A stretch of DNA of 64,000 nt from Antedon mediterranea (Eukaryota > Animalia > Echinodermata), in contig NC_092680.1 of NCBI RefSeq assembly GCF_964355755.1, forward strand, positions 15,323,045 through 15,387,044. The letters are read 5' to 3'. Positions 1-45,878 of this stretch are shown here, one piece after another. The number at the start of each line of letters is the position of its first letter. Within the stretch, counting starts at the first letter, position 1. A program made the translations under genes and the position numbers. The notes below the pieces were generated by a model. The model ran no database searches and was not told the origin of the DNA. It saw only the letters and a program-made list of their open reading frames with translations.

Positions 1-381
1 ATGGCTGAAGTAAACAAACAACAAAACTACTGACTTTTCTCTTTCTTTTTTACTGTTAACAAGTCAGTAGAATTGTGCTGCTTGATATTATGTAATTGTG
101 AACCATTATTAACTTTTTGTACCTGTATATATATATTGTAATAACTGTATGAATTTATTTTGTAAACATTTTGTATGGGTCGAACCTCTTGTTACGAGAG
201 TGTTCCTCCGTTTTAAAGGAGAGTAACCAATAAATATTATTATATTATTAAGAGAGGGCGCTACTACATTTTACACCAGAATATTAAACTACTTATACCT
301 TCACAAATGAATGCAGTAATAATAGCTACAATATAATGTAATAACTGAAAAGAATAATTTAAATAATTTGCTTATTTACAG

Positions 382-3300
382 GTGTGATATTAGGACACGA
401 AACGGATGACAATGACTTGTACAAGAATATATTTAAGGACGCTGTAAACATTGTCAACAGGAATTCTACATTCCTTTCTGGCCAGCATCAAATGTTACTC
501 ATCGACCATGTTTTATATGCCAACTATGTTTATCCAGCATTACAAGCAGGTATGACATCATCCTATTTATTATCACTAACACTCATTTATTTGTCATGAT
601 ACTTTAATTCTTTGTATTCGTCATTGATATTGTTTATATTTGCATTATTTATACGTGTCAGCCACGTGTCAGTCGCACACCATATTCACATATCTTCACT
701 TGTCCTCATTCTTTTTTTATTTATCCTAATTTTCCATTTTCTTTCTTTATTCCCCTCTTTCTCTTCTTCGTTCCTCTCTTTCTCTTCTTCGTTCCTCTCT
801 TTCTCTTCTTCGTTCCTCTCTTTCTCTTCTTCGTTCCTCTCTTTCTCTTCTTCCAATTCATCTTCTTCAGTGTTCATCTTAATTCTCCTCCTCTTTCTGT
901 TTTCCGTACTCTTTTTATCCTTTCCGCTTCATTTCACACTCTTTATTTCATCCTCTTCCTCTAGCTTTTCATAACAATACCATTCTTTTTTCCCTCTTCC
1001 TCTTTTCTCTCTAATGCTATTCATCTTCTTACTTTTCCTCCCTTTTACCCTCTTCATTTTTCATCCTTATCTTTCTTCTATAATTTCTTATAAATATTGA
1101 AATTACATTTATCAACAGTTTGCAATACCATGGTGCAAACACAGCGAGTGTCGTCACTGATACTGCCAGAAGATATTTGTCCCATGTGTGGCGATGTCGC
1201 AGCTATGGCTAGCCATGCGACAAGTCCAGTGTTCAGTCTAGATCCGGGTAGTTTGAAGTCTGGTTCAGTGGCTTTCAAGATGCACCCTTCTCCAGAGGAT
1301 ATGAGCGAATTTTTTCTCGACATGCTCGTCTATTTCAACTGGAGAAATTTTATGATTATTTATGACACCGACCAAAGTAAGTTAGATAGATTTAAGATAT
1401 CTAGTTTATACTAGGCATAAATTAAATACACACGGAACTGGCCTTAAGTACAACACTTAAAGTCAGCAAAAATACCAATATGGTATGCGAGCTCTTTCAA
1501 TAATTTCTTTCAGAGTTATTAGATTAGTTAACTGAGCTGAATTCTACAGTTCAGAACGACAACTGTAACTATTATACTTGCAATACTTTTTCACAGTTTA
1601 CGCTAATCTGGAGGACGTCATAAGTGCTGGAAACATTTATAAGTGGAACATAACTCTGCGAAAGTACGATAATAACTTCGATCGTATCGTAGAATTCATC
1701 AAGATTGAGGAAATTCGGAACATATTTCTGTATACGTCGACAGAAAAGACTACCCGGAGAATAATGGAAATGGTACGGTAATGTGACTATTATTTAAACA
1801 ATAATCACAATAAACACGGTTGATGTTGTTGTTGCATGGTGTCCTTTAATGTATGTAGTATACAATTTCTTTTAAATGCTAAAGTGGGCGTCTACTGAAT
1901 AAATATCTATGTGCATATAACCTGTAACTACTTGAACACTACCGTCATTCTCGCTTACAATAATAACATTAATTATTATTATGCCAGTTATCGGGTTTGT
2001 ATATTACATAACGGTAACATTAGGCATACACATTTTCTGTAAAAAAAGAAGATGACATAACCAATGAACCAATCAACATTTAAACGGTATTAAGGGCTTA
2101 GTTTGAGAATCAGTGCGTTTAAGTATTATGCCTACATATTATTCATTTCATATTCGTAGGGGCTTGACGAAGGCGTGGTTAGTGACCAACACCATTGGAT
2201 TGTGGGAAATCTGGTAAGTATTGTACTGTAAATGTAGAACTACGTATATTAATTGTCGATAATGATTATCTGATTAACTTTTTTCTTCTTTTTACTTGAA
2301 AATACATCCGTCTCTTGTTTTATTTTAGGACGTCTATTTAGATCGTAGTTTTATGGAAGAATTAGAAGTAAACCGTGCGTACATGACAAGATTTAAAATG
2401 AACTATACGACACAGTGGCAGTACTCTTATCCGAGCTCTCCCGATCGCCGTCTGATAGATTGGCCTTTACGTGAGCGTCTTAGCTTTGACGCAGTGCTTA
2501 CAATTGCGCACGGAATGCGCAGATACAGAGAACGCGTGCGTGAAGAGGGTCGCATTGAAGACATCAATATATTACCAGGTGATACTATGATGAATTCATG
2601 TCCAATCAACAGTGATACTCCAACCCGTGCTCTTTGGAATGACGACTTGACTTACGTAAGTAATTGTTGTAGATGTTGTAAAATATCATGATTTTAACCA
2701 AATGAAATATGTAGGCATTTTTTCCGTAAATAAACGTAGGCCTACGGTATTATTCGTTTTTTATTGTTTAGGTAATGACTACAATTATAATACCTTTAAT
2801 AAAATTAAACAACAAATAGTGCAAGGACAGCAGTTCCAGTTGCTGCTTTTGCATATTGACAGTAAATGAACTGTAAAGCAATTTCTTATGAATAACTTTT
2901 TTTCAGTACAATTTTGAGGGACTCACTGGTAACGTAGCGTTCAACCCAAATGGAGATCGTGTGAATTACACAATAATGATATACAGCGGACAGGGCGAAA
3001 CCTTTGACACAGTTGTAAGTCAGTAACGTATTAGAACAAAATATGTATGCGGAGTGTAGAAACAAAATTGTTTTGTACATAATAGATTTTTATGTATCGT
3101 ACTAAAGATTGGTTGCCACTGGAGATGAAACGCAAGGATGTAAAGGCAACGTAAGCGAGTTGACCAATCAGAAGCTTTGGATTATTCAAACTTTCGATTT
3201 ACATTGGTCAACACGCTTGCGTTGCGTCATTGCGCCCTTGTCCAATGTAAACCAATCTTAATCCTAATAAACTAGTTTAAAGGTAAAGGTAAAGGTATTC

Positions 3301-6300
3301 ATATTTGTCCTCAAGCTTAACTGGAAACTGAGGAAATTCGGATTAGGCCCTCCACGGACCCACGGCAGCCAGCAGTGCAGCGCCTACCAGATCAGCACAC
3401 TGGGAGACGATCCCCTACTCTTTTCGAATAGTGTACCAAGTTCTTTAACGTGCACTGTTAAGTACACGGGACCAACGGCTTTACATCCCATCCGAAGGAC
3501 GAGGCAATGAGAGTAAAGCGCCTTGCCTAAGGATGCAATTAGTATGGTAACCTCGAACCCATGTCTATCACATGCTAGTCCGATATTACCATTACACCAT
3601 CACTCTCCAGTATATACAGCACCCGCCGCGATTTCTAGACGATCTCCCATCCAGAACGCAACCAGGCCCAACGTTGCTTAACTTCGGTGATCTGACGAGA
3701 ACCGGTGTTTCAACGCAGTAAAAAATAGTCGTACTTCTAATTACCGTGTTTTTAACGTCATTTGTTTTAACTGATATTGTAAGGATGGTTATTACTCATG
3801 AAATAAATCTTTGTGTTTATGTATTTCAAAACACTTTTTTTAGCGTGGTGAGTGGTCGCAAAATCCACTACATTGGGAAAGCCGATACAACATCGAGTGG
3901 CGCAATGAGGGACGTTTAAACGTAACCAAGTACGTACTTGGGCTAGAGAGACGTCTTAAAGTGGTTTCAATTCTGGTAAGTCTAATAATAATTACTTTGT
4001 CTATCACAAGAAGCTCGCAGTGGAATCTGAGACAAGTCGCGATGTTGTTTGTACTGGCTTGTTCTATATCCTATATACTGCATATCAATATATTGTTTCG
4101 TGTTAATAGAATTTAGCATTTATGATGGTGATACTGTAACATGTACTCTAGTAATTGTGATGCCGAAGAAAACTTATTGAGATTTTCAGTATAGATATAC
4201 ATAGCGTATTTTTCAGCATCTTTACATGGATACACTGACTCACCCACTCGCTTTTTCATCAAATACTCAGGAACTGTACTAAAATAACAATTACTTTTGG
4301 AATATTGATCGTATAACATTTTATAAGACTATGGTAATTATATTGTCTCTAGAACAGACTCTAGTCAACTAGTTATTCTTGTTATTTTTAATAACATTGA
4401 CAATGACGTATTAATATTGACGTATTAATATTGTCTATTTTTCAGCAAGCTCCGTTCTTGATGTACAGAGATAAAGTTGATCGTTATCGAGGTAATGCCC
4501 GATTTAGAGGCTACATCATGGATCTGCTGGAGGAGATTGCCCGTGTCGTAAAGGGTATCAATTTTGAGTACGAGGTTGAGTTGGTTGCAGATGGAAAATA
4601 CGGTCGAAGAGATGAGTACAGCAATGAATGGGACGGACTGATTGGAGAGCTTGTTCGTAGAGTAAGTCAGAAATGGATTTCAAGTGATTCCCATTTACTT
4701 GTTTCATAGGCCTACTAAATATTTAATTAGTTGTGTCATAACTTAACATAACATAAGTTTGCGAAACTGTATATTATACAATAACAAATTGAATATAACG
4801 ATCGATTCTTCATTTTGTAGTGGTAAAAGACAAATAAAAATAGGTTTTGTAAATATCAGAGACAGATACAAAAGTATTGTATCGTTCTATCTCAGAATTA
4901 AGTTTAATACAATGTAAAAAAGTGTGCACTCAATTTTATTGCCAGCATTGTTTGTAAAAAAAAAACTGTCTCGTTTGTAGGCGCGCCTAAATGTCGTGGC
5001 GTTATGTTTACTATTAATCACAGAAGATTTACTATTCTTGTAAATTTGATTTCATTTACTTTTGTATGACCCGTCGACAAGTTTACTAGTGAGGGACCTT
5101 CTTTTGCAATCATATTTATTGTTATATAGGCCTATTGTAATTTTTTTTGGGAAATATTTTATATAATATTTGATTGTTCTTGCAGAAGGCTGATATTGCA
5201 GCTGGACCGGTTTCAATAACGTCAGAACGTGACGCAGCCGTAGACTTCAGTTATCCATTCATGCATAGCGGTCTTCAGATTCTCATCAAACACCCGAATC
5301 ATGTGCTGGATGACCCCTTTGCGTTCATGTATCCTTTTGGAATTGAAGTCTGGTTCTTGAATGCCATATGTTTCTTGATGGTAAGCGCTCTTTTATGGGT
5401 CATCAATTCGTTTAATCCATATGAATGGAAGGCATCAGTTGAACGACACGAAACCTTCGGCGAAAACATTGACAACTTCAGTTTCAAAAATTCTCTCTGG
5501 TTCTCTGCTTCTACGCTTGTGTTCCAAAGTTACGATGCATCACCAAGATCAACGGCTGGCAGAGTCATAGCAGGATTCTGGTGGGTGTTTGTGGTCATTA
5601 TGGTGTTCTTGTATTTGACAAACCTGACATTTTGGCTGACAGCGTCTAAGCGTCTTGCAACGATTCGTTCTGCAGAAGATCTACTAGATCAATATGAAAT
5701 TAAATATGGCGTCGTTGATGAAGGTTCTGTGTATTACTTCTTGAAGAACTCATCAAACCCTGATTTTCAACAAATGTACAGCACTGTTGAAAACACTATT
5801 CCGAAGCCAACCGTGGCTAACGTTAGTGAAGGTGTTAAAAAGGTTCGCGAATCAAATGGAGACTTTGCGTTCATTGACGAAACTGGAATTCTAAGATATC
5901 AAGCCGATCAGGCCGAACCTTGTGATTTATACGTTACAGGTGGGTTTATTTCAAGGAACAGTTACGGCCTAGCTGTTCAGAAAGACTCGCCTCTTCGTGA
6001 CCAACTGTCGTTTGCTATTGAAACCCTGCGTGACACGCGTTCACTGGAGCATCTCGAACGTCAGTGGTGGCAGTGGGATAGTAAGTGTGGTAATTTGACA
6101 ACGTGGGAGAAACAAGGTATTTACTCTCTTACTAGTGTTGATCTTATGGGAGTTTATATTCTCTTGATAATCGGATGTATTGCAGCAGGAGTAGTCTTCT
6201 TAATAGAATGTATATGTACCGGTAAGGATGTAGATCAAAGAAGGGAAAGAGCTCCTGCGCGTAGGGATGCGCGTAGGGATGATAACAGAGGACCGACTTC

Positions 6301-6373
6301 GACTACTGCTGTTGGCGGAGGAACCCCTATTCAGCCGCTTCCAGGTCAGACCCATCACCAACAGTGGATTTAG
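382..6373 (+). CDS. Divergent ionotropic glutamate receptor, cluster gene 1 (5' partial; signal-peptide exon lies upstream of the window)
   Basis: GT-AG exons 382-549, 1119-1376, 1597-1772, 2160-2213, 2329-2655, 2907-3014, 3844-3975, 4446-4661, 5186-6373 join in frame. Motifs: ATD (YFNWRNFMIIYD, FEGLTGNVAFN), S1 (DGKYG..WDGLIGELV, ADIAAGPVSITSERDAAVDFSYPF), M1, pore loop SLWFSASTLVFQSYDASPRS, M3, S2 (YGLAVQKDSPLRD), M4. Confidence 0.93.
700..1078 (+). repeat. Polypyrimidine low-complexity tract with a 21-bp tandem repeat (CTCTTTCTCTTCTTCGTTCCT x ~4.5, ~756-852)
   Basis: Directly visible in gene 1 intron 550-1118; source of the spurious F/S-rich and E/K-rich ORFs. Confidence 0.9.
3105..3260. 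mobile_element. Degenerate PIF/Harbinger-like MITE (same family as 28028 and 61536)
   Basis: Imperfect TIR AAAGATTGGTTGCCACTGGA...TCCAATGTAAACCAATCTT; internal ACGCAAG/TGACCAATCA/CGCTTGCGTTGCG motifs shared with 61536-61702. Confidence 0.65.
3279..3720 (-). mobile_element. SINE with 5S rRNA-derived head, tRNA-like segment, Deu/Nin-like core and (ACCTTT)3 tail
   Basis: Minus strand: 5S-like 3720-3615; tRNA A/B-box-like 3609-3545 (GATGGTGTAATGG...GGGTTCGAG); core CCTTCGGATGGGATGTAAAGCCGTTGGTCCC...CACGTTAAAGAAC...CACTATTCGAAAAGAGTAGGGG; tail seen as AAAGGT x3 on + at 3279-3296. Confidence 0.8.
3615..3720 (-). pseudogene. 5S rRNA-derived sequence (SINE head, not a functional rRNA gene)
   Basis: Reverse complement contains CACCGGTTCTCGTCAGATCACCGAAGTTAAGCAACGTTGGGCCTGGTT...GGATGGGAGATCG, matching metazoan 5S rRNA. 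The 5' end is truncated and there is no oligo-T terminator. Confidence 0.85.
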
Positions 6374-8596: not shown

Positions 8597-9049
8597 CTAA
8601 AAAAGAAGACAAGTAACATTTGCTGTAGGCAATACTGACAATTATGACAAATATATGAATTTTGAAATAAATAGAAGCTATAGTTATAACTTTAACATAT
8701 AAATCCAAAGGCAAATTACTGAAAATGACAATGCTGCGGGTATCTGTGGCTGGATCTCAATGGAGATACAAGAAAAAGCGAAAAGCTAAATCAAAACGAT
8801 AAAGTAAAAACAGCCTGAAGAGCTTCCGGGCAACAGTGGTCCTTCATCAGTGCAAGTTTTCAGATTTCAATTTATTTAATTGACGTGTTAAATACAAGGA
8901 ACTAGACAAAACTCGATATAGGAAGTATAAATTGAGGTTTACGTATGAAACGCCATGTGTTTAAAAAAATGTACCATTTTACCAATATCAAGTCGAATCT
9001 CCGACACCAGAATCAGTTATGCTTACCTCCAACACTGGTCGTAGTGAAC

Positions 9050-9360
9050 TAAATCGTTAGGGGTGGTCACTTTCGAGAGGTCATTTTGATGGCAGATGGT
9101 CGATTATGAGAAGCGGTCCTTTAATAGAGAGACAAGGGGGTTGTGGTCCCTTAAAAGAGGTGGTCACTTACGAGAGGTGTGGTCGTTAAGAGAAGTGGTC
9201 GCTTACGAGAGGTGATCGATTATGAGAAGCGGTCCCTTATGAGACGAGGTGATCCCTTACGAGAGGTGGTCGACTATGAGAAGCGGTCCCTTACAGAGAT
9301 GGTTGCTTACGATGTGTGGTCGTTTTAGAAAGTTGGTTGCTTACGAGAGGTGGAAAGACT
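9050..9360. repeat. ~19-bp minisatellite (GAGGTGGTCGCTTACGAGA-like), probably the subterminal array of a Tc1/mariner-type MITE
   Basis: About 15 diverged units visible, ending GAGAGGTGGAAAGACTGATA. Confidence 0.75.
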
Positions 9361-10668: not shown

Positions 10669-13600
10669 ATGGCTTCATTTCGACTTTTTATTTTTATTAT
10701 ATCCATCCTGTTCACATTTTCAAATGCGAAGGACGTTTTGTTTGGTAAGTATGTTTTTAATCATAATACAATTGCTGTTTAAAAATTATACTTTGTTGGC
10801 CTACCAGCATTTTAAAGTTCAATTACTTTCGATAAGGACACATTGAAATGATGCAAAGTAAATTATTTTACTTTGAACGGTTAGTTTGTTTAGTATCGTT
10901 TTAATATATACATAAACTAAATTGCTACACTACAATTATACAGACGTAAACGATTAAATTTAACAAATGTTTAAAACTGCCTGATAAAATACTTCAGGAG
11001 TAGATTTTGTTTTTAAAACTAAATAAGTGCAATATTAAATATACATAACTTAAAATGAAGTATAAAGAAATCTTATATAAAATTTTCTCTACCAACAAGT
11101 GCTAATATGATTCCTCTCTTAAAGTAATTGAAAACAAATATTTCTGTTGTAGGTTTGCAATAAACACTAGTGAAGTTAGGTTTGCGTTACAAAATGTATT
11201 TCTAAATTGAAATAAAGAAAGATAGAGAATGTATCGACTTTATAAATATTGTCATGTTACAGCCGTCTCCTGGAGAAAGGCAATTTACACAGACGTGCGC
11301 AACGGTAAACGGAACACAGTGTAGCTTATCCTACACAGAATCTGTATCTAACCTGAGTCGAAAACGCCCGTCCGCTCCGTATTCTGTGTAAATTGTCATA
11401 AAAAATAACTTAATTCTATTTATTTATACACAACACCACATAAACACAGTAATACAATAGTTAACATTTATTATGTATTTGATACAACTGTCGTAATTAC
11501 CTTACCCTCAATAATGAAATTCTTTAATTATTATTTGGCTTATTTATAGAAATTTGATACCACTACTGTGGTCCGTCTTACCTTAAATAATAACATTCTT
11601 AATTATTTCGAGGGCTACTCATTTCATACTAGTTCGCTGTGTTGGGGATATTTCGTGAGACCTGAGACCCAGGAGAATTCCACTGGGTGTCAGTAGGGTA
11701 TATTTCCCAAATTTGCTTTACCATTATCGCTTGTGTGTGTAAATTGGTCTTATCGTTCTCTCTTTCCCTCAACATTTGTCAGCATTTTTCGTAATGTAGT
11801 TTATAATGTTGGGCCTTGACCGACTAATCTAATTCAGAAAATTATTTTTAAATATCCTTACGACACCATATAACTTGAGCACCGATGTAATTTTCAAAAA
11901 TATTTTTTTTAAATGTCTTTAAAACTGTCTTATCTGAGCTTCAGGACCACTATATAAAAATAAAGGGGAATTGTTTTACTACGGAATAACATAGTGTTTA
12001 AATATTTTGTATGCTGAAAAATAAAACATTTTATATAAATAAAAACACGCTAAAAATTATTGATTGAATACAGCACATAGATGCTTACATGGCCCTCAAC
12101 TGTATTCGTTTACCAATGCAGTGCTTCTCTGAATAGTGACAGTGTTAAACTTATAATAATTAGCGTTAAAAATTATTCTATTTTAAGGAATAGTCGAATT
12201 GGCAAAGGCAGATTAGATTCTTTCTTATCAAAGCTACAAAGGGTGTGTTTTAACGTTCTTGGTCAATTTAAGTAGACCACTTTTATTCCCCATGTGTATA
12301 TTAATATTTATGTGAAAACTAGATTGAATTAGAGTAAAAAAAAGATAGGATCAGGATTGTTCTATTAACTCGAACGTTGCCACCCTAGGGGCAATCGGTT
12401 TCTGTAAGTTATTAAAATGTCTAAACAGTAAATTATTTTTTCTATAACGTTTATAAAACATGACGATGAAAAAGTATGGTGATGCTACTATTAGAATAGG
12501 ATAAGAAAATGTTTAGGCCTAATGTAAAAAAAATAAGGTAAAATACGTGCGAATCACCTTTATTATTAGAAATACAGTAAGTCAAGTCTGATCCGCCACA
12601 TCAAACTGCTTAGGCTATGTTATATTATACTTTACATCAAATTTGATACAGTATGACAATCTTCTATCAGTTTCAAAAACGGTTTTTAGTTGCTGTTCTG
12701 ACAGATAACTTCAGTATTTACTGGTACTGTACTATTAAGGTTATGTCAAGGTTTAATGACCACTGTTCAATCAAGAATAATTCTTTAAAAATGTAATTGT
12801 TTCTATGGTTCAAGAATTGTTAATATTACTACATGTATACAGTACATTTGTATAGTATTTCAATTAAGTAGTTGTGTTAATTTTATCATACATTTCTTTA
12901 CTTTAGGATTTTTTTATTTCCTGTTTTTTCTTTTAACACTATGCTTTGTTACTGTTCTTGTGGCCGTCTTCTCCCGAAGACACATGGCCGTCATTGACGG
13001 ATTTCACTGCTGGTATACTCGAGATCTACGTTTATATACAATGCGTATGCCTACACTTTATTTCAATGTTTATGTTGTGTTGATATAACATTGCGATTAC
13101 GTTATTTATTGAAATATTTATATGTTGATGTGCTGTTATTTTCTTCTTGTGCTTTTGTTATGGTCTGTGTTGCTGAAATAAATAATTAATATCAAAGACT
13201 TTTTATTACTTTTTTTCTAATCTATTTTTTTTCTAATCTTTTTCTTGTTTTTATTTTATATTCTATTTTTTAATGCAACCTTAAAATATGTAATTTTCCT
13301 TTCCTTTATTTAAAATTATTAAAATATTAAAAAAAAAACGATTTAAATCCATCTAATTTAATTTAGAATAAAAAAATATCCCTATTCTAAAACCAAAATC
13401 TAAGCCTATTAAAACATCAAGGGAAAAGACCACAATTGAATACTCAATCCAATCGTTCATTTTGAAGAACAACTTATGTTTATTATTAGGTGCTATTCTC
13501 GGAAAAGATAGTTCTTCGACGACGGCGTACAGCTTGCCGAGTGGTTTCATCAATCTAGAACAGGTCATTGAAGACGCTACAAGGGTGGTTACTAGTAACT

Positions 13601-16600
13601 ACAGTTTCTTAACAAGTACTCATCAGCTGAAAGCCACGTTCGAAAGAGATTATAAAGATTCATTATTTGAAGTAATGCATTTAGGTAGGTCCATGAATAA
13701 ATATTATGTGTTTAATAAGTAATCAAGTATTTCATTTTAACATAATGTTGAAGTTAATCAATTTGATTAATTAATATATTATGTTATCCTAGTTTGGTAA
13801 TGTAGTTTGCAAATAAGTCAATAAATAATAAATATATAATGTATATAGAATAACGAATACTATGTTGATATAAAGTTTGCGGTAATTAGTTCTGAAAAGA
13901 ACTTTTGAGTTTCTCGACATTTCGATGAATATACTTAGGGAAACTCAACAGTTTTTTTTAACTAAATAAACGTGATGTAAGCAAAATGTATGTCAACATA
14001 TAATAAATCTTCATCAAAAAAAGTTTTTTCTCACTAATGTGTTTACTGTCGCATACACATCGATAGGCTAAATGTTAGGTCACGTCTAGTAATAAATAAT
14101 GTTGTACACAGTATGACATGGTATAATATCATCCTTCCTTTTCTTCCATTTTTCCAAATTGTAAAGCTTGTGATACAATTCGGACAAACAGACCTACTTA
14201 CCTCATCGTTCTGGAAGATGTATGTCCTGGTTGCAGTGATTTGGCATCGTACGTTAGTAAGACAACGGAGGGACCTATTATTTCTATAGATCCTGGTCAA
14301 GTAGGCACAGGTTCCCGGGCATTGAAGATGTACCCACCTCAAAGTGACATGATCAACTTTTACATGGATATTTTGAAATATTATAAATGGAGAAAATGGA
14401 CTTTCGTTTACGATCACGGTGAAAGTGAGTAAATATGAGTTGTTTTAGTTGGCCTATCGGTTATATGTAATGTGAATTCTAAATTCGTTTTGCTATTTTT
14501 TAAGTTAATCAGAATTATTTTTGTAATTTTAATTTTCAGTGTTCAACAACTTTCTACCTATCAAAGCTTGGGCTGATACACAACAGTTTAACGTTACATT
14601 TGAGCCTTTTGAAGGTAACTTAGACATGTTGGCTCAACGAATTCGTAAACGCGATGATGCGAACATATTCTTGCTAACAGCAACGGAGAAGGCAAGCCTC
14701 GATATCATTCTTGGTGGAATTGATCGAGGAATAATATCCAGAAAGTATCATTGGATAGTTGGGCATCTTGTAAGTTTACCATTAGTGTTTACCGACCTAT
14801 TGTATTATGATTTATTCTATTATGATTTAGGCCTAGTCTTTATTGACAAACGGGAGATAAGAGTCCAACAAAATATATTCAATGAAGCATAAAGTCTTAA
14901 TATGTACCGTATCAAATTTAGATACTATTTTAAACTAATTTTAATTAAAACAAGGCCAACAGCCATAAGTCGCGTGCTAAAACGCTTAGTGATACCGGAC
15001 CAACAGACAGACCGACAGACCGACAGACCGACCGACCGACATAGTGAACTATAGAGTCGCGTCCACGCGACTAAAAACAAAATTTAACAATAATAAATGT
15101 TCAATTAATAATCTGACACTGTACATTACGATTTTGACGTAGGCCTAAGTATCAGTAAAAGGAAAACATAAGGAAGGAAGACATAACGCGTACATTACGT
15201 TTCTCCTATGCAAATCAAATTCCATTACCTTACTACTGGACAGGCAATTAAGACAATTTCTTGTGTTGTTTTTGAGTGCTTTTGGTTTTTATCCCTTAAA
15301 AAGATTTTCTCTTTCCATTCTTTTGGAATTGCGTTTAATACAATTTGCCATTCAGCAATCCAGTTTGATTTATACCTAAGCATATCTAGTAATTCATTTG
15401 CGTTAATGAACCTTTTCTCAATTACAATATCCTTAATATTTCGCACACCTGACCTTATCCAGTTTCTAAAAAATATTGACATGTCATTGTATAAAATCAT
15501 TTTGTTATACCAGAGTTGTTGATGCAATATATCATCATAACATAATTGACGTTTAGTCATACCACTATTAAGTTTGACTAAAATACATAGTATAGATTTA
15601 TAGAAATCTGGTATGGCTTTAAAAATAGCATTTTTCTTATCAATATATGATATGTTTTCAATAATATCGTTTGGGCCTATTCTATTAAAATATGTGTTTG
15701 GCAGACATTTCCACTTTGAATCCTCATTGTTATACAATCTTTTAAGCCAAGATATTTTTAAAGATTTAACCTGTGACCTGAAATCAGGCGCTTTAACACC
15801 ACCACTTTCATATTCGTTTATAAGAACTACTCTTTTAACCTTTTCTCTTTTTCCATCCCACAAAAAGTCAAAAATTATGTTATCACCACGTTTTAGAACA
15901 CTTTCAGGCGTGTTTATAATACTTGCAACATAAACAAGTTTTGACAGGCCAAGCGTCTTTAAGATAATTATTATTGTCTGTGTATAGTTAGTGAGCATTT
16001 TACCAGTATTGTATAATAAAAAAGGTGTCCTTTTCTAACCCATTTATTTTTAATGAAATGCTTTATAGATAATTTTGCATTTAATTAAAATATATGTATA
16101 TTTGTGTGTTTTATTTACTTAGGATGTAGTACTGCAAAGCAATGTTAGAGAACGACTGGAGAGTACAGGAGTATACATGACTCGTTTTAAGATGAATTAT
16201 ACAATGGAGTGGCAATATACTTTCCCCTCATTTTCCGATCACCAAGCAATTTTACACGAATGGCCGCTACAATACAGGCTAGCATTCGATGCCGTTCTGG
16301 CTAGCGGATACGGACTCATGAAATATCGTCTGGAGCAATTGCATGTAGATCCTAATAATTATTATACAGATGCTACAGTAATAGACAATTGTCCTACCGG
16401 TAGTTACAATCGCAAACCTACCATGAGCAAAATTTACAATTATACAAAATATGTAAGTTATACTTCTTTCATTTAGATTGTTTTACCATTAATCATTTCA
16501 GCGTCAACAAATATAATTTATTTTGTTTCATTCACAGGTATAAACAAAAATGTACAAAAATAGTCAAATGCTAAAAACATTGTCATTATTTACAAAGGTT

Positions 16601-19600
16601 AAAAAACAAAAAATGTGTTTTTACTACATCTCCTTATTTAATTATACATTTTCTGACGTTAGAAAAAACAAAGCTAATTACTGATAACTTATATCTAAGT
16701 ATAAATTATCCCTTTATACGTTTGCAGTTAGTATAATTATGAAAATGATATTATTAATAATTTATCTACCTTTAAAATTGTTTTTGCAATCAATTTGTTC
16801 AAACTTAATTTATAAAAAAGTGACGCTATACGGTAGATTTTCTTTTATATATTACACTACAACATTACTTTTCAGTATAACTTTGAAGGGCTGACAGGAA
16901 ATATTGCCTTTAATGACGTTGGTGATAGAGTAAACTATTCGATCATGGTGCACGCTGGTATCGGGCGGACGTTGGATCAACTGGCAAGTACTCTTTTTAA
17001 ATTTATTTTTTAAACCTGTTTTCCACTAGGAAAATTTGTTTGCGCGAATCCAACGTTTTGCAGAGAAAAACAAATCGAGTCACAGGTCTGCTGAGCTTTT
17101 CTATTTGCAAGAGTGGTCATAAACGTGTTTCCAGCTCAGTTCCCGAGCTCACATTGGTTGCACAATGTTTCGCTTTGTTTCGCGTTTTAACTGGTATCGT
17201 AATTTCGCTGAAGCAACTAGAATTCGTCGTAGAGAGGGATTTGGAAGATGAAAACATAAATATGCATGCGTATAAAGCTGACGCTTTCGATTGGCGCGAA
17301 TAGACTCAGCTAGTGAATAGGCTTTACGCATTTAATGTAGGTCGGAGCATTATTTGATTTTGTTATTGATTTTATTTTTTGCAATAAACTATTTAATTTC
17401 TTTATTAAACATTGTAACACTGTGACTTTCGCACATAGTTTAAAATGTCGGTTAATTAGACATTTAAAAAAATCATTGATGTAACTTAATGCCACGTAGT
17501 TGACCCTTGACCCTGTCGCTAGTGACCATAACGATCACCTTTGAATGATAAATTGATAATAAGCTAACTTGTCTTTAACTATGTATTTTTTTATATCAGG
17601 TTGGAGAATGGGCAGAAAATCCTAATCACTGGGAAGATAGGTATAAACTGAAATGGGAAAGCCATGGACGATTTAATACGACCCGGTATGAACAAGGTGG
17701 AAGACGAAAGTTGAAAGTTGTATCGATCAAAGTATGTTGATAATTATACCTTGTTACGTAATTCAGTCATGCTGTACCCATCCAGAGGCTACACTAAACT
17801 AAATATAAATTTCCTTTATGGTATGTTGCCACTTACGCTCGTCGTTATCTCCAGCTCAGTTGAATAACAATAAGTGGCCTCCGCCGGTGGTTTATATGTG
17901 TAAGACTTGTTACTTAGCATGTTATCCTTACTTACTATTGAGATTGCTCTGTTTTAAACAACTATTTATATAACACATAAATAAATTCTTGTCAATTGAT
18001 TGGACGATTAATGATCACATGACGTGCAATAGTACGTCCTATTTAACACAATGGTCTAATAATAGTTTTTTATACTTTTTTTTTCGCCCCGTGAAAATAG
18101 AATTTCATCTATCACCTCATACATTATTTGTACTATCTCACTCATAAATATTCATTATTTTTTTATAATATATCAATTTTTTTAGTATAACAAGTAGGCC
18201 TATTTTATGTAAAAATAATATGATTATGCCTATGAATGAGCAGGCCTAGTTATCTATTTCAGATTTAACGTCACGAAATCAATGCAGTTTCTGATTACAT
18301 ACGCTGTGTTTACCACTTTCATCCTAATATTATATAATAACTAACAATGTTCCTGTTTTTGTAGGTCTTTCATGTTTTTAATTACGGCATTTAATATCTT
18401 TTCTTATATGTGTTAAGGTTCCACCGTTTTTAATGGACAAAGATGATGTACTTTACAGAACAAAACGAGACACTAATTACGTAGATGAATACGATCGTGA
18501 TCGCTACAAAGGATTCATTGTTGACCTACTAGAAGAAATAAAAAATACGGCAAAAGGCATTGATTTTGATTACGATATCGAGCTGGTGCCGGACGGAAAA
18601 TTCGGTACAAGAAAACCATTTAGTAAAACATGGAACGGAATGATTGGCGAAGTATACAGAGGAGTAAGACCTTTTGTTTTTTTAAAAACCAAAGATAGGT
18701 TTAGCTAGTTTTAAAGATATGTATTCATGAAAAATGAAGTTTAATAAAAACAGATTTTGAATTGGTAATTTTGCAGTTTGCAAGTTAATCACTTCCGTAG
18801 AAAAAAAACCAAAAAAAACCCCAATAATTTCACTTTTTCAAAAGATAAAAAAAATGTTAAATTCAACCATTTACTTCCAGCCAGTTTGACTATTTGTTTG
18901 CGTTAAATCACTGTTTCTTCAGGTAAATCATTTTTTTCCGATCCAATTTTTGGTCAAAGTGAATAACTATTACGTGACATTAAACTTATAATATATAACA
19001 ATATATCTTTAAATGACAATATTTTGCTTCTTATGACTTACTGGTATACCTATTAACAAACATTCTATTCAGAATTTAAAACTATTTAAGACATAATTCG
19101 GAACATGATTATTTAATTATAGTTGAAGTAAAATAGCTCACTTATGCCACATAAAATATCAGTTTCTGCTAATGAAGGACGGCTATTCTGAATATTAACT
19201 AATGTATTAAATAAAGATACAATCCTTTTCAAAAATCAACAACCATATCGCTGGTATTCATAACGGAATACAACAGTAATTCAATTACTTTCCACACTGT
19301 AATATATTTATCGAATCATGGAATCATGTTTCTGTAAATATCTGAGCATTTTTTTGTTATCTCAAGAGATCGATAAAATAAGTTAAATTCAGTATAATTT
19401 ACGTACCGAAAATTCGAGCACTTAAGTACCTCTGTGAGATTTGTAGGCTACTTTTGAAGATCTTCTGGTGAAATAAAAAACCATTTTGAAAAATCATATT
19501 CACAGGTGTTATTAAAATATGACATCGATTCATGTTACTGCAGAGTGCATGTATTTATTTTATATTACTTTAGTTCCTATTATAATAGAAGTTTCTGCCC

Positions 19601-21143
19601 TATGAATATTCATTTATTCTGTTACTTTCTTATTTGCATTCTCATTTACATATTATTTGCCAAGTGTGCACAGTGTGCTGTTTCTCCTTTGTTTTCCTTT
19701 GTCATAATTTTCTTTTGGAAGGAATCAGCAGCAGCTGACCTAATTGGTAGATCCAATTAAAATTCATGTTTTTCAGAAGTTTCTGATTTTTCAATTCAAA
19801 AGCCACAACATCTTTCAAGCGTCATTACTACGTGATATTGTTTTAAGCCTATAGTCTGTTTTGCACTTATCCTTTTAATATTATGTTATTATAAATGAGT
19901 AATGTAAGGCATATTGATCAGCAATGACTTATTTAATTATATTTTGTTTACGCAGAAAGCAGACATCGCAGCTGGCCCTTTGACTATTCGACCAGACAGA
20001 GTCCAGGATGTAGATTTTACCAGTGCATTTATGCAGGCTGATTTAGCTGCTCTTGTTCACCACCCTAGCTACACCACCGGGGACGTACTAAGCTTTTTGT
20101 ACCCATTCTCTCTTTGGGTATGGCTTTTAAACATCGTTGTATTTGTGGTGGTTAGTCTTATCATCTACGGAATCAATTATTTTGACCCATACGAGTGGCG
20201 CTTGACTGCTTTGCGCGGGGACGCGTATGAGGAAAACATGGACAATTTCAATTTATCTAACACAATGTGGTTCCTTACATCTACCATGCTTTTTCAAAGT
20301 TTCGATACATCTCCAAGATCAAACGCAGGCCGTGTGATGGCGATATTTTGGTGGGCTTTTGTCGTCATCATGGTCTTCCTTTATATCTCGAACTTACCAT
20401 TTTTTCTTCAGTCTACGAAACGACTAACAGGCATAAGATCAATGGATGAAATGCTTGACCGTTACGACGTACAACCGGGTATTGTAGCAAGTGGTTCCAC
20501 ATTCCACCTTTTGAAAAAATCGAAAGATCAAACACTGAACCGGTTTTTTAAATTTGTGGAATATGCCAATCCAAGTGTTTTAGTGTCAAGTACAGAACAA
20601 GGCATTGATCTGGTGCGTGATAAAAGCAGACGTTTTGCTTTAGTTGGCGAATCTCCAGTTTTAGCATTCCATGCCTCAAAGGATCCGTGTGATCTTCATG
20701 TGACTATTGGGAAGATTTACAGACAGAGTTACGGACTTGCTATTCGGAAAGACTCGCCGTTAAAGGAACCGTTGTCTCACGCCATAGAACTACTCATAAA
20801 AAATGAACAGCTACATCGTCTTGAGTTAAATTGGTGGCAGAGGAATAACAGATGTGGAAACATGACAACCTGGGAGAAACAAGGCATTTATTCATTTACG
20901 TCAGTCGATCTCTATGGTATATACATCTTACTCGCGCTAAGTATGATCGCCAGTATTGTGATCTTTATGGTGGAATTTCTTTGTTGTGATTCAAGTAAAC
21001 ATCAGAAAAAGAGCAAGAAAAGGAACAAGCCTAGCAGTAAAAGGAAGGAAAATGAGCAATTTACCCTCTCTGTTATAAATGGTGATCGCACACCAGAGCC
21101 ACCTATGATACTATCTACAGAAAAAGAAAAACAATGGCTTTAA
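10669..21143 (+). CDS. Divergent ionotropic glutamate receptor, cluster gene 2 (~920 aa)
   Basis: Exons 10669-10744 (signal peptide MASFRLFIFIISILFTFSNA), 13490-13684, 14167-14424, 14540-14769, 16123-16452, 16876-16983 (GC donor), 17600-17731, 18418-18663, 19956-21143. Total 2763 nt in frame; same iGluR domain order as gene 1. Confidence 0.92.
11278..11398. mobile_element. Small TIR element (Harbinger-like MITE)
   Basis: CAATTTACACAGA...TCTGTGTAAATTG inverted ends with internal ACGG/CCGT symmetry. Confidence 0.55.
14946..15078 (+). mobile_element. Short Helentron-associated (DINE-1/HINE-like) element
   Basis: (ACAG/ACCG)n microsatellite followed by the hairpin AGTCGCGTCCACGCGACT and AAAAA; AGTCGCGT also occurs near the 5' end. 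Confidence 0.55.
15225..15975 (-). mobile_element. L1/Tx1-clade LINE ORF2 fragment (post-RT region), antisense in gene 2 intron 4
   Basis: KTLGLSKLVY...IIFDFLWDGKREKVKR..L...YESGGVKAPDF....SLKISWLKRL...W...LWYNKMI...F..W...GV..IKD is typical of L1/Tx1 ORF2 downstream of RT; truncated at both ends. Confidence 0.85.
17012..17326. mobile_element. Degenerate Harbinger-like MITE
   Basis: AAACCTGTTTTCCACTAG...CTAGTGAATAGGCTTT imperfect TIR with CGCGAA subterminal motifs. Confidence 0.5.
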
Positions 21144-22577: not shown

Positions 22578-25500
22578 ATGGCTCACGCTGTGGTAAATGT
22601 TTTGGTTTGTGTTTTGCTTTTTCACGCAAATGTTCACATTGCTAATGGAGAAGGTGTTACATTTGGTAAGTTTTATACCTGTTGATTTTTTTAAATAAAT
22701 GTAATTAAATTATGCACGATACAGTATTAATAACACGATTCCTATGCTTTTTTGTAAATATGTATGATTTTATCAGATCTATTAGAAAATAGGCTCAGTA
22801 AAAGCATTTTCGCATCAACTAAGCTGAAACCGACCATCATCTCATGTTATGTTGTTTACTTACTACCTGCCTATATAGAATAAAATAGAACTGAAAGCAC
22901 CAATTAATATTGCCGGTATCCGGATGTTGGTTTCAGCATTTCTTTATAAAAATAACGGATTGTATTTTAATTTATTCATCATAAAACAATTCCTACCATC
23001 TTAAATTACAAGACTTGTATAATAATACTATTTTTATTTCCTTATAAATGTGATTTTTCAAGTAGCAGTCTACCTCCCTGTTTTTAATTCGTATCTGTAT
23101 TTGTGTTTAAAAATACTTATTTTAAATGCTTGTGTCTTTGTCTAAATATATTTGTTCTAAAATTAAAAAGGGGTAAATACATAGTGAATATCCTGATCAA
23201 TATAAATGCTTAAATATAATATTTAAATTATGAATTTAAATAATGGTGTGTCATCCGTGATGATCCACCTTTGACTTCCTTGCATTGGATGAAATGTAAT
23301 GACTAATATTTTGAAATCCTACATTAACAATATTAATCAACGTTTTAAACACCGACTGTAAAACAAAGTAACATAGTCGGGCTGTAACCGAGAGTATGAA
23401 TCAGAAAGGTGATTAACGCATTATTTTCCCTGGTGCCTACCTATGTTTTAGCTGGGTAACAACGCCCTAGTTTAGGTACCACATTATGATTGACATTTAT
23501 TGACCAATCGCAATTGTATGGTGTTTTACCATATTCCATGAAAAGTTAATCAGAATGTGGTACCTTTACTCCCTTGTTAATATGAAAATCAAATCAAATT
23601 ATGCAAACCTGTACAGTATCATTCAGTTCACACCTCTTTACCCATGCGCGTGTTACGTCACCTATCAAGTGAACAATATTGCTATAGTTCGCAGCACTTT
23701 CTTGTCAACCTAAACTATCAATCTTCTGACGCTGTAGTGTTAGGTAAACAATTCAATAAAAGAAGCACTTGATGAACTTTCACATTTTTTACGTGTTACG
23801 CATTTTATGACTTTCGAAATTGATGCTTCTACTCGAATATATTTATTCTAATATATCCTCAAAGATAAAATACGTTTTGTCCAGAATTTGTTACGCATTG
23901 TAGGTTTAATTTTACATTCTTTTTATTATTGACCAAGACAATGGCAGTATCATAATATAAATAGGTGGTGGAATCTGTGGGACTAGAACAATGACTAAAA
24001 ACCGCATTACTATTTGTTATATTTCTCATGTGTGCGCTTTGCTGCTGAATTTTATTTTAAAAACCTAATAAAATACCTATCTGATTGAGGGAGATGTTGA
24101 CAAAATAAACCGCAAGGTGCAATGCAATAAAGTATACCAATTTAGGAAACGTCATGGAGTTGGCCTTCACCCTAGTTGTTGAGGACGTTCGTATACATCC
24201 TAAATTGATCTTTTATTATTTATTGATTATTCAATAGCCAGCATAGCCCAACTATGCTTTTTGATGCACTGTAAAGGTAGATTTTCAACGTGTTATGTTT
24301 TACTTAGCTTTGCTATGACTTTTTTACAGACTTGGCCTACAATACACTGTAATAAAATTAATACAACCCGACCCGCATAATGTCAAACATTTCCCCATCC
24401 AATTTTCCGAGTTATCTACCCTCAATTGTGGCCTCTACCCAATAACAGTATAATTATGACTACTAGTAAGGTATTTGGGTAATTTTCCAGTCAAATTCTT
24501 TGACCCGTAATGATCATGGCTCAAGTAAAGTTTATATAGCAGGTTTCAAAATACATTTTCCACTTTGTTGTTCTAAATAGTTGATAGCAAGCTCCGCGGC
24601 AAAATAGAACCGTTAAATTTCTTTAGGGCCTTTGGCGCTAAAATTAAGTTCACAAGCAATTTAAGAGGTCACAATTAAAAGAGATCTAGTTGGATAGCAA
24701 TCGTGTTGTTAACAAAACAATTGTTCGTTCTATTGTTTGCATCCATAAAAGCTTCTGAATTGACGCTTGATTACACTTCAGTTGCTTTCTAATTCCAATT
24801 TCTAAGGATGTTTTCAATACCGTGGCTTATAAATCCCTTTGTATAATTTTAAGTATGCTGACTAACCGATGATGAACAGTTTGTTATAATAGTTTCGTCA
24901 TTGGTGAACAATTTACCCCTGGCAATACCGTTCTCTATTGTATTTTGTCTATTCTAAACGACACAATGAAGGCTTTTTTACTATTGAATTTAGCTTTGAG
25001 TTTAGGTAGTACCTTTTAAATGAAAAGTAAGACTTTACAAACAGCATTTAGAAAATTATTTACATTTCAATGTAAGTGATATCGGTCGGCAAGCAAACAC
25101 ATTTGGAACAACATCCAGACCTAATAATAATTTTAAGTATGTTGACTAAACCGATGATGAACAGTTTATATATAATAGTTTCGTCATTGGTGAACAATTC
25201 AACCCCTAGTTCCTATGGCATTGATAAACTAGAAACTTTAGTAAAACAAATTATAAAGTTATAATATACTAGGCCTCCAAGACCGAATTCGGGCTAAAAA
25301 CCTTATTTTTGTTTTAATATTCAGTATAATTAATTATTCGTACATCCCCTTTAACAAAAAGGCCGACTGAACTATGCAGGTACTTATTTTATAGATAGTA
25401 TAGATAGACACACAAAAATGATAGACGTCTTGTTTATCATGAAATCTAACTTTAAACGTGTTTCATCAACATCATCCTTCTAACCTACATTTCGTTGGCA

Positions 25501-28500
25501 TGGTTTGTTTATATGAACTGTCAAGCTATTTACATATCGTAGCATGTAAATATGAATAAACGTTAGTAGGCTGAAACTTTATTAATCAGAAATCATAAGA
25601 AAAGATTATCTTAGCTCCCTCTGGAATCAAGGAAAATACTAAACACAGAATGGAAGCATCGATACCAGAGAATGGTTTTCAATTAAAGTTACCCTTTTTG
25701 CTTCAAATTTAAAAAAGAAATGTGGGATTCATTCTTTGAAGTAATATTGAACTAATTGCCTTTAGTTTTAAAATGAATAAATAATGATTGATAATATCAC
25801 CAAAAACGAGTTCAGTAAAACAAACCATCCAAGCCACGAAATGTCAAGGAAAGTCAACAAAAACAGGTGTACTTTAAACAAAATTCGACTGGGACTCATA
25901 ACAAGAGTAATTTCTACTTTCTATTTCGGGCACCCATCAAAACAGGTCATTCCTACTACCAGCTGATTGGAAGAGACCTGTCATGATGAAGTTATCAACA
26001 TTATACTCTTCAAATCGATTAACATGCTTGGCGCGTGCAAAATGCAGTAGACATCGTAGTATCTGAATATAAAATGAAAGCTTGTCAGAGCCATAAAGGA
26101 AAATAAGTTTAGGGTTTTAAATGTCTTACCAATTATTACACTTTATATTTTCTTATACAGGTACTTTGTTAGAAACTTTCTCCAAACGAAAGCGGAAATG
26201 AATATTTTCCCAATTCTGATACATTTCACATATCATGTTCCGCAGGTTTTTTGGTATACAAATTCCTGACCTCACTAATTACTACGGTACTCGAGAATAT
26301 TTTGTAGTGAATGTCGTTGCGTTTTATATTAATACCATTGAACTCTCTCATTTATCATTGTTAGCTGGTTTCAGTATAATTATTTTCCTGTTTTTTTATT
26401 CTGGCATTCTTATTTTTATACAATAGCAATTAAGCTAACAAAACCGTGAGTCATCGGGCGTATACTTCGTGGTAACAGTAAAATAATAATTATTGATTTA
26501 CACTGGTAACAAGAGCGCGTCGTATATGCATATTGAAAGAACACGGATTTTGTATTTGTAGGCCTATACGTTATTTTGGTTTAGTATGCTTTAAACTACA
26601 CACAGTTAACGTATACATGACTTCATAAACGTGTAGCTGTTTGTTTTTCTGAAAAATAAATTCCACTAATGTTTTCAAGTCAAAAATCATTATAATCAAT
26701 TTTATTACCCTATAAACTACTATATATATTTAATATTTAAAATATTAAACTCCTGTGTTTGTATGCGTAAGCAATCTTCATTAATACATTCGTCGGTAAG
26801 ATATATCAATAATTTTAAATAAATATTAATTAATATAGTAATGGATGTGTTATATGACCTTAAAATAGATTTTTTTTCACAGCAAAGGGAAAGTGCAAAA
26901 TTCGTGAATAACAAATAATAACGAAAACATTTTGTTGTTGTGATATTTGTGTGATAGCAAGGCGAATATTATGTTTTTCTTTGACCGTGTTGTCAATATT
27001 ATTTTATTTTAATACAGGTGCCATACTAGGAGAAGAAACTGGACGGGTCGGCAGCGTTTACTATGAAATACTTGACCACGCCATGGCTGTGATTCGATCA
27101 AATAGTACATTCTTAACACAATTTCACAAAGATGTATCAGAAGTTGTTGTCGTACAACAGAGCAATGACGACTTATATCCAGCATTAAAAGAAGGTAAGA
27201 AATATCATTTAAAACAAATTTAAAATAGGGTTTTTCTGTACCGTACATCAACAGCAATAGAACTAATCGTGGCGTAGGCCTATTGATATGTTTAAATTGA
27301 ATAACTGTAGCATCATGAATTAATAAGGGAAATAAATACTTGCTTTTGACTGGACTTCAATAAAAAATAATGAGGTTAGGGTTATCCAAAATAAAAACTT
27401 AGAAATAATGTTTTTATGGTTACTTATATTATTTTTCCATTTCAATGATATATACTGTGTTATTGGTCTGTGATTTAGTTTAGTTTCTTATTTTGTATTA
27501 TCATATTGAATATCGTAATACAATACGACGATACATTTATGAACAATCGTTCTTTTATAGTCTGCGATTTTATCCAACAAGAAGTACCATCCACATTAAT
27601 TATCACAGAGGACGTATGTGGTGATGACGTAGGTACATTTATCAGTTATGGATTACCTGGACCAGTATTCACTGTCGACCCTGGTCAGTTTGGTTCCGGA
27701 TCCAGAGCCATCAAGATGTACCCTATCCCGGAAGATATGAGCATATTTCTTCTTGACATGCTTGATTATTTTAAGTGGCGTAAATGGACGATAGTTTATG
27801 AAGATTCTCGTAAGTTGTATTAAAAATATCTATTTATTACAGTATTATTACAGTATTAATCAGTGATGGCACCGTATATAGGTTGAGGGCGGGGATGATG
27901 GTGAGGAGTTGTTATAGGGGAAGATGAGGTTTTAACCGACGGAATACTCGTCTGATTACTTTAATGGTAATGAACTTTAGGCTTGATTTTTAAACACTGT
28001 CTGTGTAAAGCTCCGCAATAGGCCATTTAAGCGTGGTTCCCACTAGAACGCGACGTATCGACGCAAAGTGCTGTATTGCGTAATCACAAGTGGGAACCGA
28101 TGACGCAATAGTGCTGCAAACATCGCAGGTTTGATTTCAAGCAGGCGGGGGCAAACACAATTATTAGAAGGGCATTCTCCTACGTTGCGTAGATTGCGTT
28201 ACGTTGCGTCCCTAGTGGGAACCAAGCTTTAGCTTTGAGATTATCTTTTTTTTTTTGTAAGAAGTGACTGTACTGTAAATACAACATTATGTTATTTTAT
28301 ATTATTACAGAATACAATACATTTTCGGACATATTAGTTGCTGCTTCTGCCAACAAGTTCAACGTCACATTACGTGAATACAACGGTGACGTCGCCGACT
28401 TAGCTGAACAAATAAAGGCTGACGGGAACCAGAACATTCTTCTGATGACGGAGAGTGAGGAAACGACAATAGACATTATAAACAAAGGGGTAGCACAGGG

Positions 28501-31500: not shown

Positions 31501-31554
31501 ACCAGTGTTGACTATGAACTAACCGGTCCAACCAAAGAGAAACAGTGGTTGTGA
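22578..31554 (+). CDS. Divergent ionotropic glutamate receptor, cluster gene 3 (~895 aa)
   Basis: Exons 22578-22665 (signal peptide MAHAVVNVLVCVLLFHANVHIANG), 27018-27194, 27561-27809, 28311-28540, 28701-29033, 29457-29564, 29797-29928, 30046-30261, 30400-31554. Total 2688 nt in frame; closest paralog of gene 2 (same introns, same KEKQWL terminus). Confidence 0.92.
24843..25207 (+). repeat. ~80-bp direct repeat (24843-24920 and 25127-25207)
   Basis: ATAATTTTAAGTATG[C/T]TGACTAA..CCGATGATGAACAGTTT...ATAATAGTTTCGTCATTGGTGAACAATT occurs twice in gene 3 intron 1. Confidence 0.85.
28028..28230. mobile_element. PIF/Harbinger-like MITE
   Basis: TIR AGCGTGGTTCCCACTAG...CTAGTGGGAACCAAGCT flanked by TAA/TTA. 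Confidence 0.8.
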
Positions 31555-45500: not shown

Positions 45501-45878
45501 TTCAAATATACGCAAACATAATTAGTAATTATATTACTTATTTTATGAGCAAAAAAAGATTAATTGTTACAGAACAAGCTAACACACGCATAACATTGGA
45601 TACACAACATTAACCTTAGTTAATTATATTTTAGTATCGACATATTATTCTGTAAGCGACTGGTATATCAAATGTATGTTACCATCCACCAACCATCAAT
45701 ACTTACTTGTAATGACAATGATAAAACCAATGAATTACATTTCATTAAAAAAAATTAATAATCTATTGGTACGTAAAAAAAATAGAAAATGAAACTTACC
45801 CATTTTCAACTCGAGAGCTAAAGCCACTTGTTGGACTCCGATGGAGAGAAGCAACACAAGCGCCACTTTCATCGCCAT
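36513..45878 (-). CDS. Divergent ionotropic glutamate receptor, cluster gene 4 (~915 aa, 11 exons)
   Basis: Minus-strand exons 45878-45800 (signal peptide MAMKVALVLLLSIGVQQVALA), 41977-41810, 41451-41200, 40766-40582, 40047-39994, 39546-39356, 39198-39075, 38809-38702, 38598-38458, 38070-37789, 37676-36513. Total 2748 nt in frame. Confidence 0.92.

Follow-up and report, generated by a model that had tools for sequence, protein, structure and literature searches.

The window, i.e. the whole stretch of 64,000 nucleotides of Antedon mediterranea DNA that was analysed, harbors five long open reading frames (387-411 codons), which translate to the end of S1, M1, the pore loop, M3, S2, M4 and a tail. 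With exon sets obtained by tblastn, upstream exons encoding the amino-terminal domain (ATD) and S1 were found for all five genes, and the Pfam families ANF_receptor, Lig_chan-Glu_bd and Lig_chan were matched, identifying ionotropic glutamate receptors (iGluRs) with AKDF architecture. The domain order that marks an iGluR (ATD, S1, M1-pore loop-M3, S2, M4) is present in the array genes. Judged by sequence, the array consists of tandem Phi-class iGluR subunits of a crinoid:

381..6373, + strand: gene 1, Phi-class iGluR subunit (exons by tblastn; GT..AG joints in X1 and X3 contigs)
5186..6373, + strand: single exon of gene 1 encoding the S1 end, M1, pore loop, M3, S2, M4 and tail (open reading frame, joint 4661-5186, Pfam Lig_chan)
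10669..21143, + strand: gene 2 (P0018), Phi-class subunit (exon match to P0018; spliced contigs)
22578..31554, + strand: gene 3 (P0014), Phi-class subunit (exon match; spliced contigs)
36513..45878, - strand: gene 4 (P0040), Phi-class subunit (exon match; contigs)
47680..53723, - strand: gene 5 (P0071), Phi-class subunit (exon match to P0071)

P0018, P0014, P0040 and P0071 are labelled by their sources 'glutamate receptor-like' proteins of Antedon mediterranea; RefSeq names of the type 'glutamate receptor 1-like' are assigned automatically and mislead. Genes 2 and 3 are sisters (UFBoot 100). The signal-peptide (first) exon of gene 1 was not located in the window and probably lies upstream of it, and the first exon of gene 5 was not located. 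Exons of genes 1-4 are joined at GT..AG boundaries in contigs of X1 and X3, which stem from two studies, with no RNA record for either; X2-X5 stem from one sample, which may be the source of the window. For gene 5 no spliced contig was found among those listed, its cover in X1 and X3 being thin, which is not evidence of silence.

In all five genes, the whole membrane region, S2 and the tail are encoded by one exon of about 1.2 kb:

5186-6373, 19956-21143, 30399-31554, 36513-37675 and near 47680-48876 (gene 5): last exons of about 1.2 kb

Vertebrate iGluR genes have many introns across the membrane region. The start of the ENA protein P0063 appears to coincide with the boundary of this exon, and because of this apparently shared start the single-exon layout may be common to echinoderms. 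A sixth Phi paralog with the motif LYGLNLSPY (P0010/P0058, P0013/P0059) lies outside the window on what appears, by its length, to be the contig of genes 2-5. Since a 700,243-base Anneissia contig carries five paralogs and the accessions of the Lytechinus paralogs are nearly consecutive, tandem Phi clusters seem to be widespread among echinoderms. At 6271-6353 the tail of gene 1 varies between samples: 12 bases are deleted in X4, and three differences in X1 and X3 alter amino acids.

To place the genes, trees were built from 188 proteins, obtained after 18 duplicate, near-duplicate or repeat-laden models, three oversize or short spans and short fragments had been dropped; 12 columns around the M3 motif were removed, and P0071, a duplicate of gene 5, was excluded from the counts. 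The best relatives of the array proteins are echinoderm proteins. An echinoderm Phi clade of 43 proteins was obtained (FastTree 1.0 with 188 rows, UFBoot 100 in a 47-row subset), 28 of them echinoderm by name or the window's own, with all five echinoderm classes represented. This clade and 13 other proteins (hemichordate, lophotrochozoan and some without an assigned taxon) together make up a broader Phi clade (0.993, UFBoot 98); none of the proteins in the set was identified as an amphioxus Phi. The remaining 131 iGluRs, which include no NMDA, IR or named Delta references, served as comparison set.

The Phi class of the AKDF subfamily was defined in PMC6307864 (Ramos-Vicente et al., 2018), the available part of which allows some reference proteins to be recognized here. 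The starfish protein P0007 is GluF_Apl, having the same N-terminus as in the eLife alignment and the same 914 aa; P0219 has the length of GluF_Sko (686 aa); and the N-termini of P0075, P0086 and P0016 resemble, in a by-eye comparison, those of purple urchin GluF1-3_Spu. Grouping with these published references assigns the array genes to the Phi (GluF) class on sequence grounds. The AMPA/kainate class was rejected, as the genes lack the canonical gate, have no Q or R at position 586 and fall outside the AMPA/kainate clade. Delta was rejected as well, since the genes group with Phi references (in a tree without a named Delta reference) and lack the Lurcher-site alanine. IR tuning subunits are defined by having no ATD, whereas ATD exons are present in all five array genes; the other mark of these subunits, a degenerate gate with a hydrophobic Q/R-equivalent residue, was found in the array genes.

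Many hemichordate and lophotrochozoan Phi-clade proteins are only 465-546 aa long, with the ATD apparently missing, the gate degenerate and the Q/R site occupied by Trp or Leu (P0067, P0068, P0069, P0070, P0078, P0137, P0157, P0172, P0177 and P0211). The 989-aa protein P0074 of Lineus consists of two receptor units in head-to-tail order, each ATD-less and with a strongly divergent M3, and is probably two merged gene models.

A sequence-only reading of the locus had listed five different nine-residue stretches in place of the M3 gate motif SYTANLAAF, with F, F, W, S and D at position 8, the Lurcher site, and proline at position 7 in genes 2 and 3. All five were found exactly as written, in frame and within intact iGluR genes, with these residues at both positions:

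5609..5635, + strand: gene 1 M3 gate LYLTNLTFW (in frame, last large exon; identical in the Anneissia ortholog)
20379..20405, + strand: gene 2 M3 gate LYISNLPFF (in frame, last large exon; ortholog LYITNLPFF)
30823..30849, + strand: gene 3 M3 gate LLLSNAPWH (in frame, last large exon; ortholog LFLSNAPRY)
37224..37250, - strand: gene 4 M3 gate LYGMHLSSF (in frame, last large exon; identical in the ortholog)
48424..48450, - strand: gene 5 M3 gate SYFANLSDY (in frame, last large exon; ortholog SYCLNLSNY)

Alignment of the five 9-mers with the canonical motif, in GluA2 as in other iGluRs, needs no gap, and gene 1 aligns to GluA2 gap-free through M3 and the M3-S2 linker. The string YxANLAA does not occur in any frame of the 64-kb window. 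Contigs cover the motifs of genes 2, 3, 4 and 5 without any differing letter, and the differences in the X2 and X3 contigs covering the gene 1 motif fall outside it; among the listed contigs covering the motifs no sign of editing back to the canonical motif was seen, one X1 difference in gene 1 being unplaced. In an AlphaFold2 monomer model of the last exon of gene 3, M3 is drawn as one helix through the proline (mean pLDDT 68.9, moderate confidence); the model, which confirms the fold only, matches the AMPA receptor LBD-TMD.

Exact SYTANLAAF occurs in 97/131 other iGluRs, in 0/43 proteins of the echinoderm clade and in 0/13 other Phi proteins, and the 56 Phi-clade proteins retain 1-5 of the nine canonical residues. 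The loss is uneven: within the echinoderm clade Y2 is kept in 40/43, N5 in 39/43 and L6 in 36/43 proteins, T3 in none (leucine in 29), A4 and A7 once each and A8 never. The substitute at A8 is aromatic in 24/43, and that at A7 small (T, S or P) in 37/43. Each window gene has a one-to-one Anneissia ortholog (UFBoot 100), with core identities of 94, 76, 78, 83 and 73% for genes 1-5 and 9, 8, 6, 9 and 6 of nine motif residues shared; the sixth paralog pair, outside the window, shares 8/9. Gene 1, whose ortholog is P0060, is the slowest-evolving paralog. Among themselves the paralogs share 1-5 of nine motif residues. Orthologs with the canonical motif, which the sequence-only reading had named as a sign of decay or sequence error, did not turn up: 0/43 proteins are canonical, and the variants are largely kept in the related feather star Anneissia. 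That the motifs merely record the decay of redundant duplicates or sequence errors is largely refuted and very improbable: the divergence among paralogs and the 6/9 residues shared with orthologs by genes 3 and 5 would suit it, but it is opposed by uninterrupted frames, full exon sets, splicing seen in contigs of genes 1-4, orthologs at 73-94% identity and a like motif in all five echinoderm classes.

The gate had been described as rewritten in every paralog. Five independent rewrites from SYTANLAAF were rejected, since the departure is common to all 56 Phi-clade proteins and predates the crinoid duplications. Hemichordate Phi proteins depart more mildly (e.g. AYLSNLGAF). From these milder forms and the Phi-wide loss, the departure began in the Phi lineage, advanced in the echinoderm ancestor and drifted again after duplication; as read from these alignments, the echinoderm form of the motif is older than the crinoid duplications. 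All 17 short-branch proteins (from crinoids, starfish, brittle stars and urchins, gene 1 included) fit the pattern L[YF]LxN[LI][TS][FHY][FW], which fits only 1/26 other echinoderm-clade proteins. This consensus is a lead, because the short-branch group was picked by eye from the tree, one nested urchin paralog with a drifted motif was left out and the placement of gene 1 in the group is unsupported (UFBoot 55-56). It is likewise a lead that gene 1 may carry the conserved echinoderm form while its paralogs drifted further.

Site rates were compared between the 43 echinoderm-clade proteins and 45 randomly drawn other iGluRs over 333 nine-residue windows. The motif evolves at 0.13 of the mean rate in the other iGluRs (second slowest of 333) and at 0.95 of the mean in echinoderm Phi proteins (rank 165/333). 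Rates rise most in four windows, all of which overlap the motif, and the Lurcher site moves from the 0th to the 93rd percentile. The proposal that the change is focal holds by site rates, qualified by further changes at the Q/R site, at the glycine two residues beyond, immediately ahead of the motif and at the outer mouth. Focality cuts both ways, because crinoid ortholog pairs keep the motif (46/54 residues, 85%) to no greater extent than the remaining core (1645/2005, 82%); a motif at the average rate would fit a gate without importance as well as a retuned one.

Positions, 478, 480, 615-629 and 732 among them, are given in GluA2 numbering, in which T617, A621, T625 and M629 are the gate rings. 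Numbers 485, 586, 590, 653, 655 and 705 follow the available part of PMC6307864. The Q/R site (586) is F, F, L, L and L in genes 1-5 and hydrophobic (L, F, M or W) in 43/43 echinoderm Phi proteins; glutamine at this site is found in 0/43 of them, in 0/13 other Phi proteins and in 107/131 other iGluRs. Glycine 588 is replaced by serine in 34/43. The canonical residue is kept in 0/43 at T617, 1/43 at A621 and 0/43 at M629 (arginine in 27), and E627 is lost. The net charge of residues 624-629 is +2 in 36/43 echinoderm Phi proteins vs 8/131 others. The pore loop is still slow, with a mean rate of 0.71 in echinoderm Phi vs 0.61 in canonical receptors; 36/43 proteins retain D590.

In the ligand clamp, R485 is kept in 37/37 proteins covering it and E/D705 in 43/43, both in all five genes, and the M3-S2 linker shows no indel relative to GluA2, with lysine at 628 in 43/43. 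Gene 4 has the most altered ligand pocket (V480, A653 and P654, in both crinoids). By the 653/655 rule, as far as the published text accessible to us states it, genes 2 and 5 have a glutamate-type pocket and gene 1 a glycine-candidate pocket. An aromatic residue followed by L or I ends 38/42 complete echinoderm-clade tails vs 3/144 other iGluRs; in the array the tails, otherwise unrelated, end as follows:

6370, QWI; 21140, QWL; 31551, QWL; 36516, EYL; 47683, EWL: array C-termini

This end, which we take to belong to a PDZ-ligand motif class, is consistent with a PDZ-type anchor.

The explanation that we favour, held tentatively and judged a little short of probable, is that the five genes encode amino-acid-gated channels with a rebuilt gate, probably working as Phi-Phi heteromers around a gene 1-type core. 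The M3 gate would have been altered in the echinoderm ancestor, with further drift among paralogs. An amino acid would close the clamshell, the candidates being glutamate for the pockets of genes 2 and 5 and glycine for that of gene 1, and the M3-S2 linker, of unchanged length and with its invariant lysine, would pull on M3. The closed seal may be formed by the position-3 leucine together with a bulkier packing of helices against each other at positions 4 and 8, replacing the Thr/Ala/Thr/Met rings of AMPA receptors in this role. Gene 1 and its slow-evolving echinoderm counterparts would supply the conserved gate, and genes 2-5 would be partner subunits with a freer M3, as in insect tuning IRs. 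Ligand binding and coupling are argued from the kept clamp, linker and pore loop, and a differently built seal from the changed rings; the hydrophobic Q/R site and the basic outer mouth lead us to predict low Ca2+ permeability and a small conductance.

In favour of such a rebuilt gate, the changes at positions 3, 4, 7 and 8 left Y2, N5 and L6 in place, the new consensus runs through 17/17 slow-group proteins, and the pore loop is slow with D590 kept. A precedent comes from the available part of bioRxiv 10.64898/2026.09.30.755715, where IR75b has a degenerate motif and yet a closed apo gate, and the accessible text of PMC10603993 reports that crinoid arm muscle is excited by glutamate. Against it stand the average rate of the motif and its conservation between crinoid orthologs, no better than that of the core. 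Large residues at positions 3 and 4 plus the +2 mouth charge could block a four-fold pore, gene 1 sits in the slow group at UFBoot 55-56 with a drifted urchin paralog nested there, and the partner in the IR precedent retains the canonical motif, unlike every Phi protein examined here.

The same shift of the motif from the second-slowest window to the average, together with the rise of the Lurcher site to the 93rd percentile and the loss of the canonical residue at T617, A621 and M629, would be expected if the proteins bound their ligand and were anchored by their C-termini while the pore stayed shut and the gate was free to drift. That they are non-conducting amino-acid sensors or synaptic scaffolds of this kind is nevertheless unlikely: the PDZ-anchor-like end in 38/42 tails agrees with it, but the pore loop, D590, N5 and K628 are strongly conserved and the new motif is fixed in 17/17 slow-group proteins. 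Vertebrate Delta receptors are no precedent for gate decay because they are silent for reasons outside the motif, and Delta-type silence was rejected as a precedent, since none of the nine positions changed for a partial rescue of rat GluD2 is within the motif (PMC10861852, in the part available).

Replacement of A8 in 43/43 proteins, aromatic in 24, raises the question of leak channels that are constitutively open, with ligand modulating or shutting off their current, like Lurcher GluD2 or insect IR76b. According to the accessible parts of the respective papers, A8T is constitutive in AMPA, kainate and Delta receptors and a bulky A7 opens NMDA receptors (PMC3434102), and IR76b, a natural leak, requires Thr at the A8-equivalent site (PMC7882480). 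We consider leak channels improbable. The array has F, F, W, S and D, not T, at position 8, and positions 1, 3, 4, 7 and beyond are also changed, so what it shares with Lurcher GluD2 (A654T), the A8T AMPA/kainate mutants and Drosophila IR76b is the replaced alanine. A7 is small in 37/43, NMDA receptors are not opened by A8Y (PMC3434102, same part), and IR8a/IR75b is closed without ligand despite its degenerate motif (bioRxiv 10.64898/2026.09.30.755715, available part). Effects of single mutants do not transfer, because neighbouring positions changed together, and the position-3 leucine would tend to seal rather than open the pore.

Phi proteins might also be tuning subunits that conduct only as obligate partners, in heteromers with canonical-gate echinoderm AMPA, kainate or Delta subunits. 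In vertebrate iGluRs the ATD restricts assembly to one class, and echinoderm Phi proteins keep the full ATD, which speaks against such mixed assembly; we regard it as improbable. Speaking for it, canonical subunits exist in echinoderms (P0036), and a single pore may have no room for four bulky, basic M3 ends. In the accessible text on insect IRs, the combination of degenerate motif, hydrophobic Q/R site and kept Arg and acidic residues is that of tuning subunits, and the co-receptor keeps the motif.

With the rebuilt gate, 'differently gated' is the best supported of the three options offered by the sequence-only reading; 'delta-like' is weak and 'leak' is countered by the closed IR8a/IR75b. 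A bolder reading, which we regard as a long shot, is that echinoderm Phi proteins represent a second working iGluR gate design, retained since the class split, built as core-plus-tuning heteromers and perhaps anion-permeable. Its parts would be the leucine seal, the aromatic Lurcher site, the hydrophobic Q/R site, the basic outer ring and possibly an altered selectivity. If true, this design would parallel insect IRs within the deuterostomes.

That SYTANLAAF is less conserved among some Phi proteins was already noted in one sentence of PMC6307864, its effect left open, and Q586 is absent from all Phi proteins in the part of that paper at hand. Neither the echinoderm consensus nor the rate shift was seen in this part, nor were the basic outer mouth and the C-terminal end, although figure supplements may show motifs. 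The Phi proteins published there (GluF_Apl, GluF1-3_Spu, GluF_Sko) agree with the array in clade, lack of Gln at 586, R485 with an acidic 705 and a weaker motif; they differ in that the table holds two echinoderm species and no crinoid, whereas here a five-gene array and a sixth paralog were found. The array is a real, heritable feature of a known, functionally unrecorded class, whose divergence is already in print and to which extent and focality are added here. As far as their available text goes, PMC8437780 extended Phi to molluscs, including a tandem expansion of scallop GluF, with no occurrence of the motif name; PMC12226733 covers Phi as phylogeny only; the list of expressed receptors in PMC13648236 names no Phi; and the sea-urchin transcriptome of PMC12467107 names GRIA1, GLUR2 and GLUR3. 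PMC10861852 describes starfish Delta as GABA-gated, and PMC10603993 reports glutamate-evoked contraction of crinoid arm muscle. No Phi receptor recording or echinoderm gate analysis was found in the literature within reach, most subscription papers and all figures lying beyond it, and nothing useful was found there on a kainate-binding-protein precedent.

The best matches among solved structures are AMPA receptors (GluA1-4; sequence E 5e-70, Foldseek E 2e-24, about 31% identity), which share domain order and linker length with the array, but belong to another clade and differ in Q/R site, gate and outer-mouth residues. In the available part of bioRxiv 10.64898/2026.09.30.755715, tuning IRs often have a hydrophobic Q/R site, and IR75b, whose motif is degenerate, forms with IR8a a complex that is closed in the apo state. 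IR75b thus shares with the array a degenerate gate, a hydrophobic Q/R-equivalent residue and kept Arg and acidic pocket residues. The array differs from IR tuning subunits by its full ATD, its long synaptic-type architecture and its deuterostome origin, and from the IR system, as described in that part, in that IRs have a co-receptor with the canonical motif whereas no canonical-motif Phi was found here.

SYTANLAAF is treated as essential to iGluR gating. The array and its orthologs offer natural, selection-tested gate variants at sites of engineered and disease substitutions, with gene 1 and starfish GluF as slow-evolving members of the series. They bear on the need for this motif in gating and on the role of an unrecorded class where glutamate reportedly drives arm muscle.

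An unexplained 269-codon open reading frame lies at 15225-16034 (- strand). A purine/pyrimidine-rich tandem repeat at about 600-970, in an intron of gene 1, gives rise to spurious low-complexity open reading frames, and interspersed repeats in introns and spacers are marked by a very high summed contig depth:

about 3300-3700, 8700-9400, 14900-15100, 18750-18990, 34200-35100 and 38270-38360: high-depth repeats
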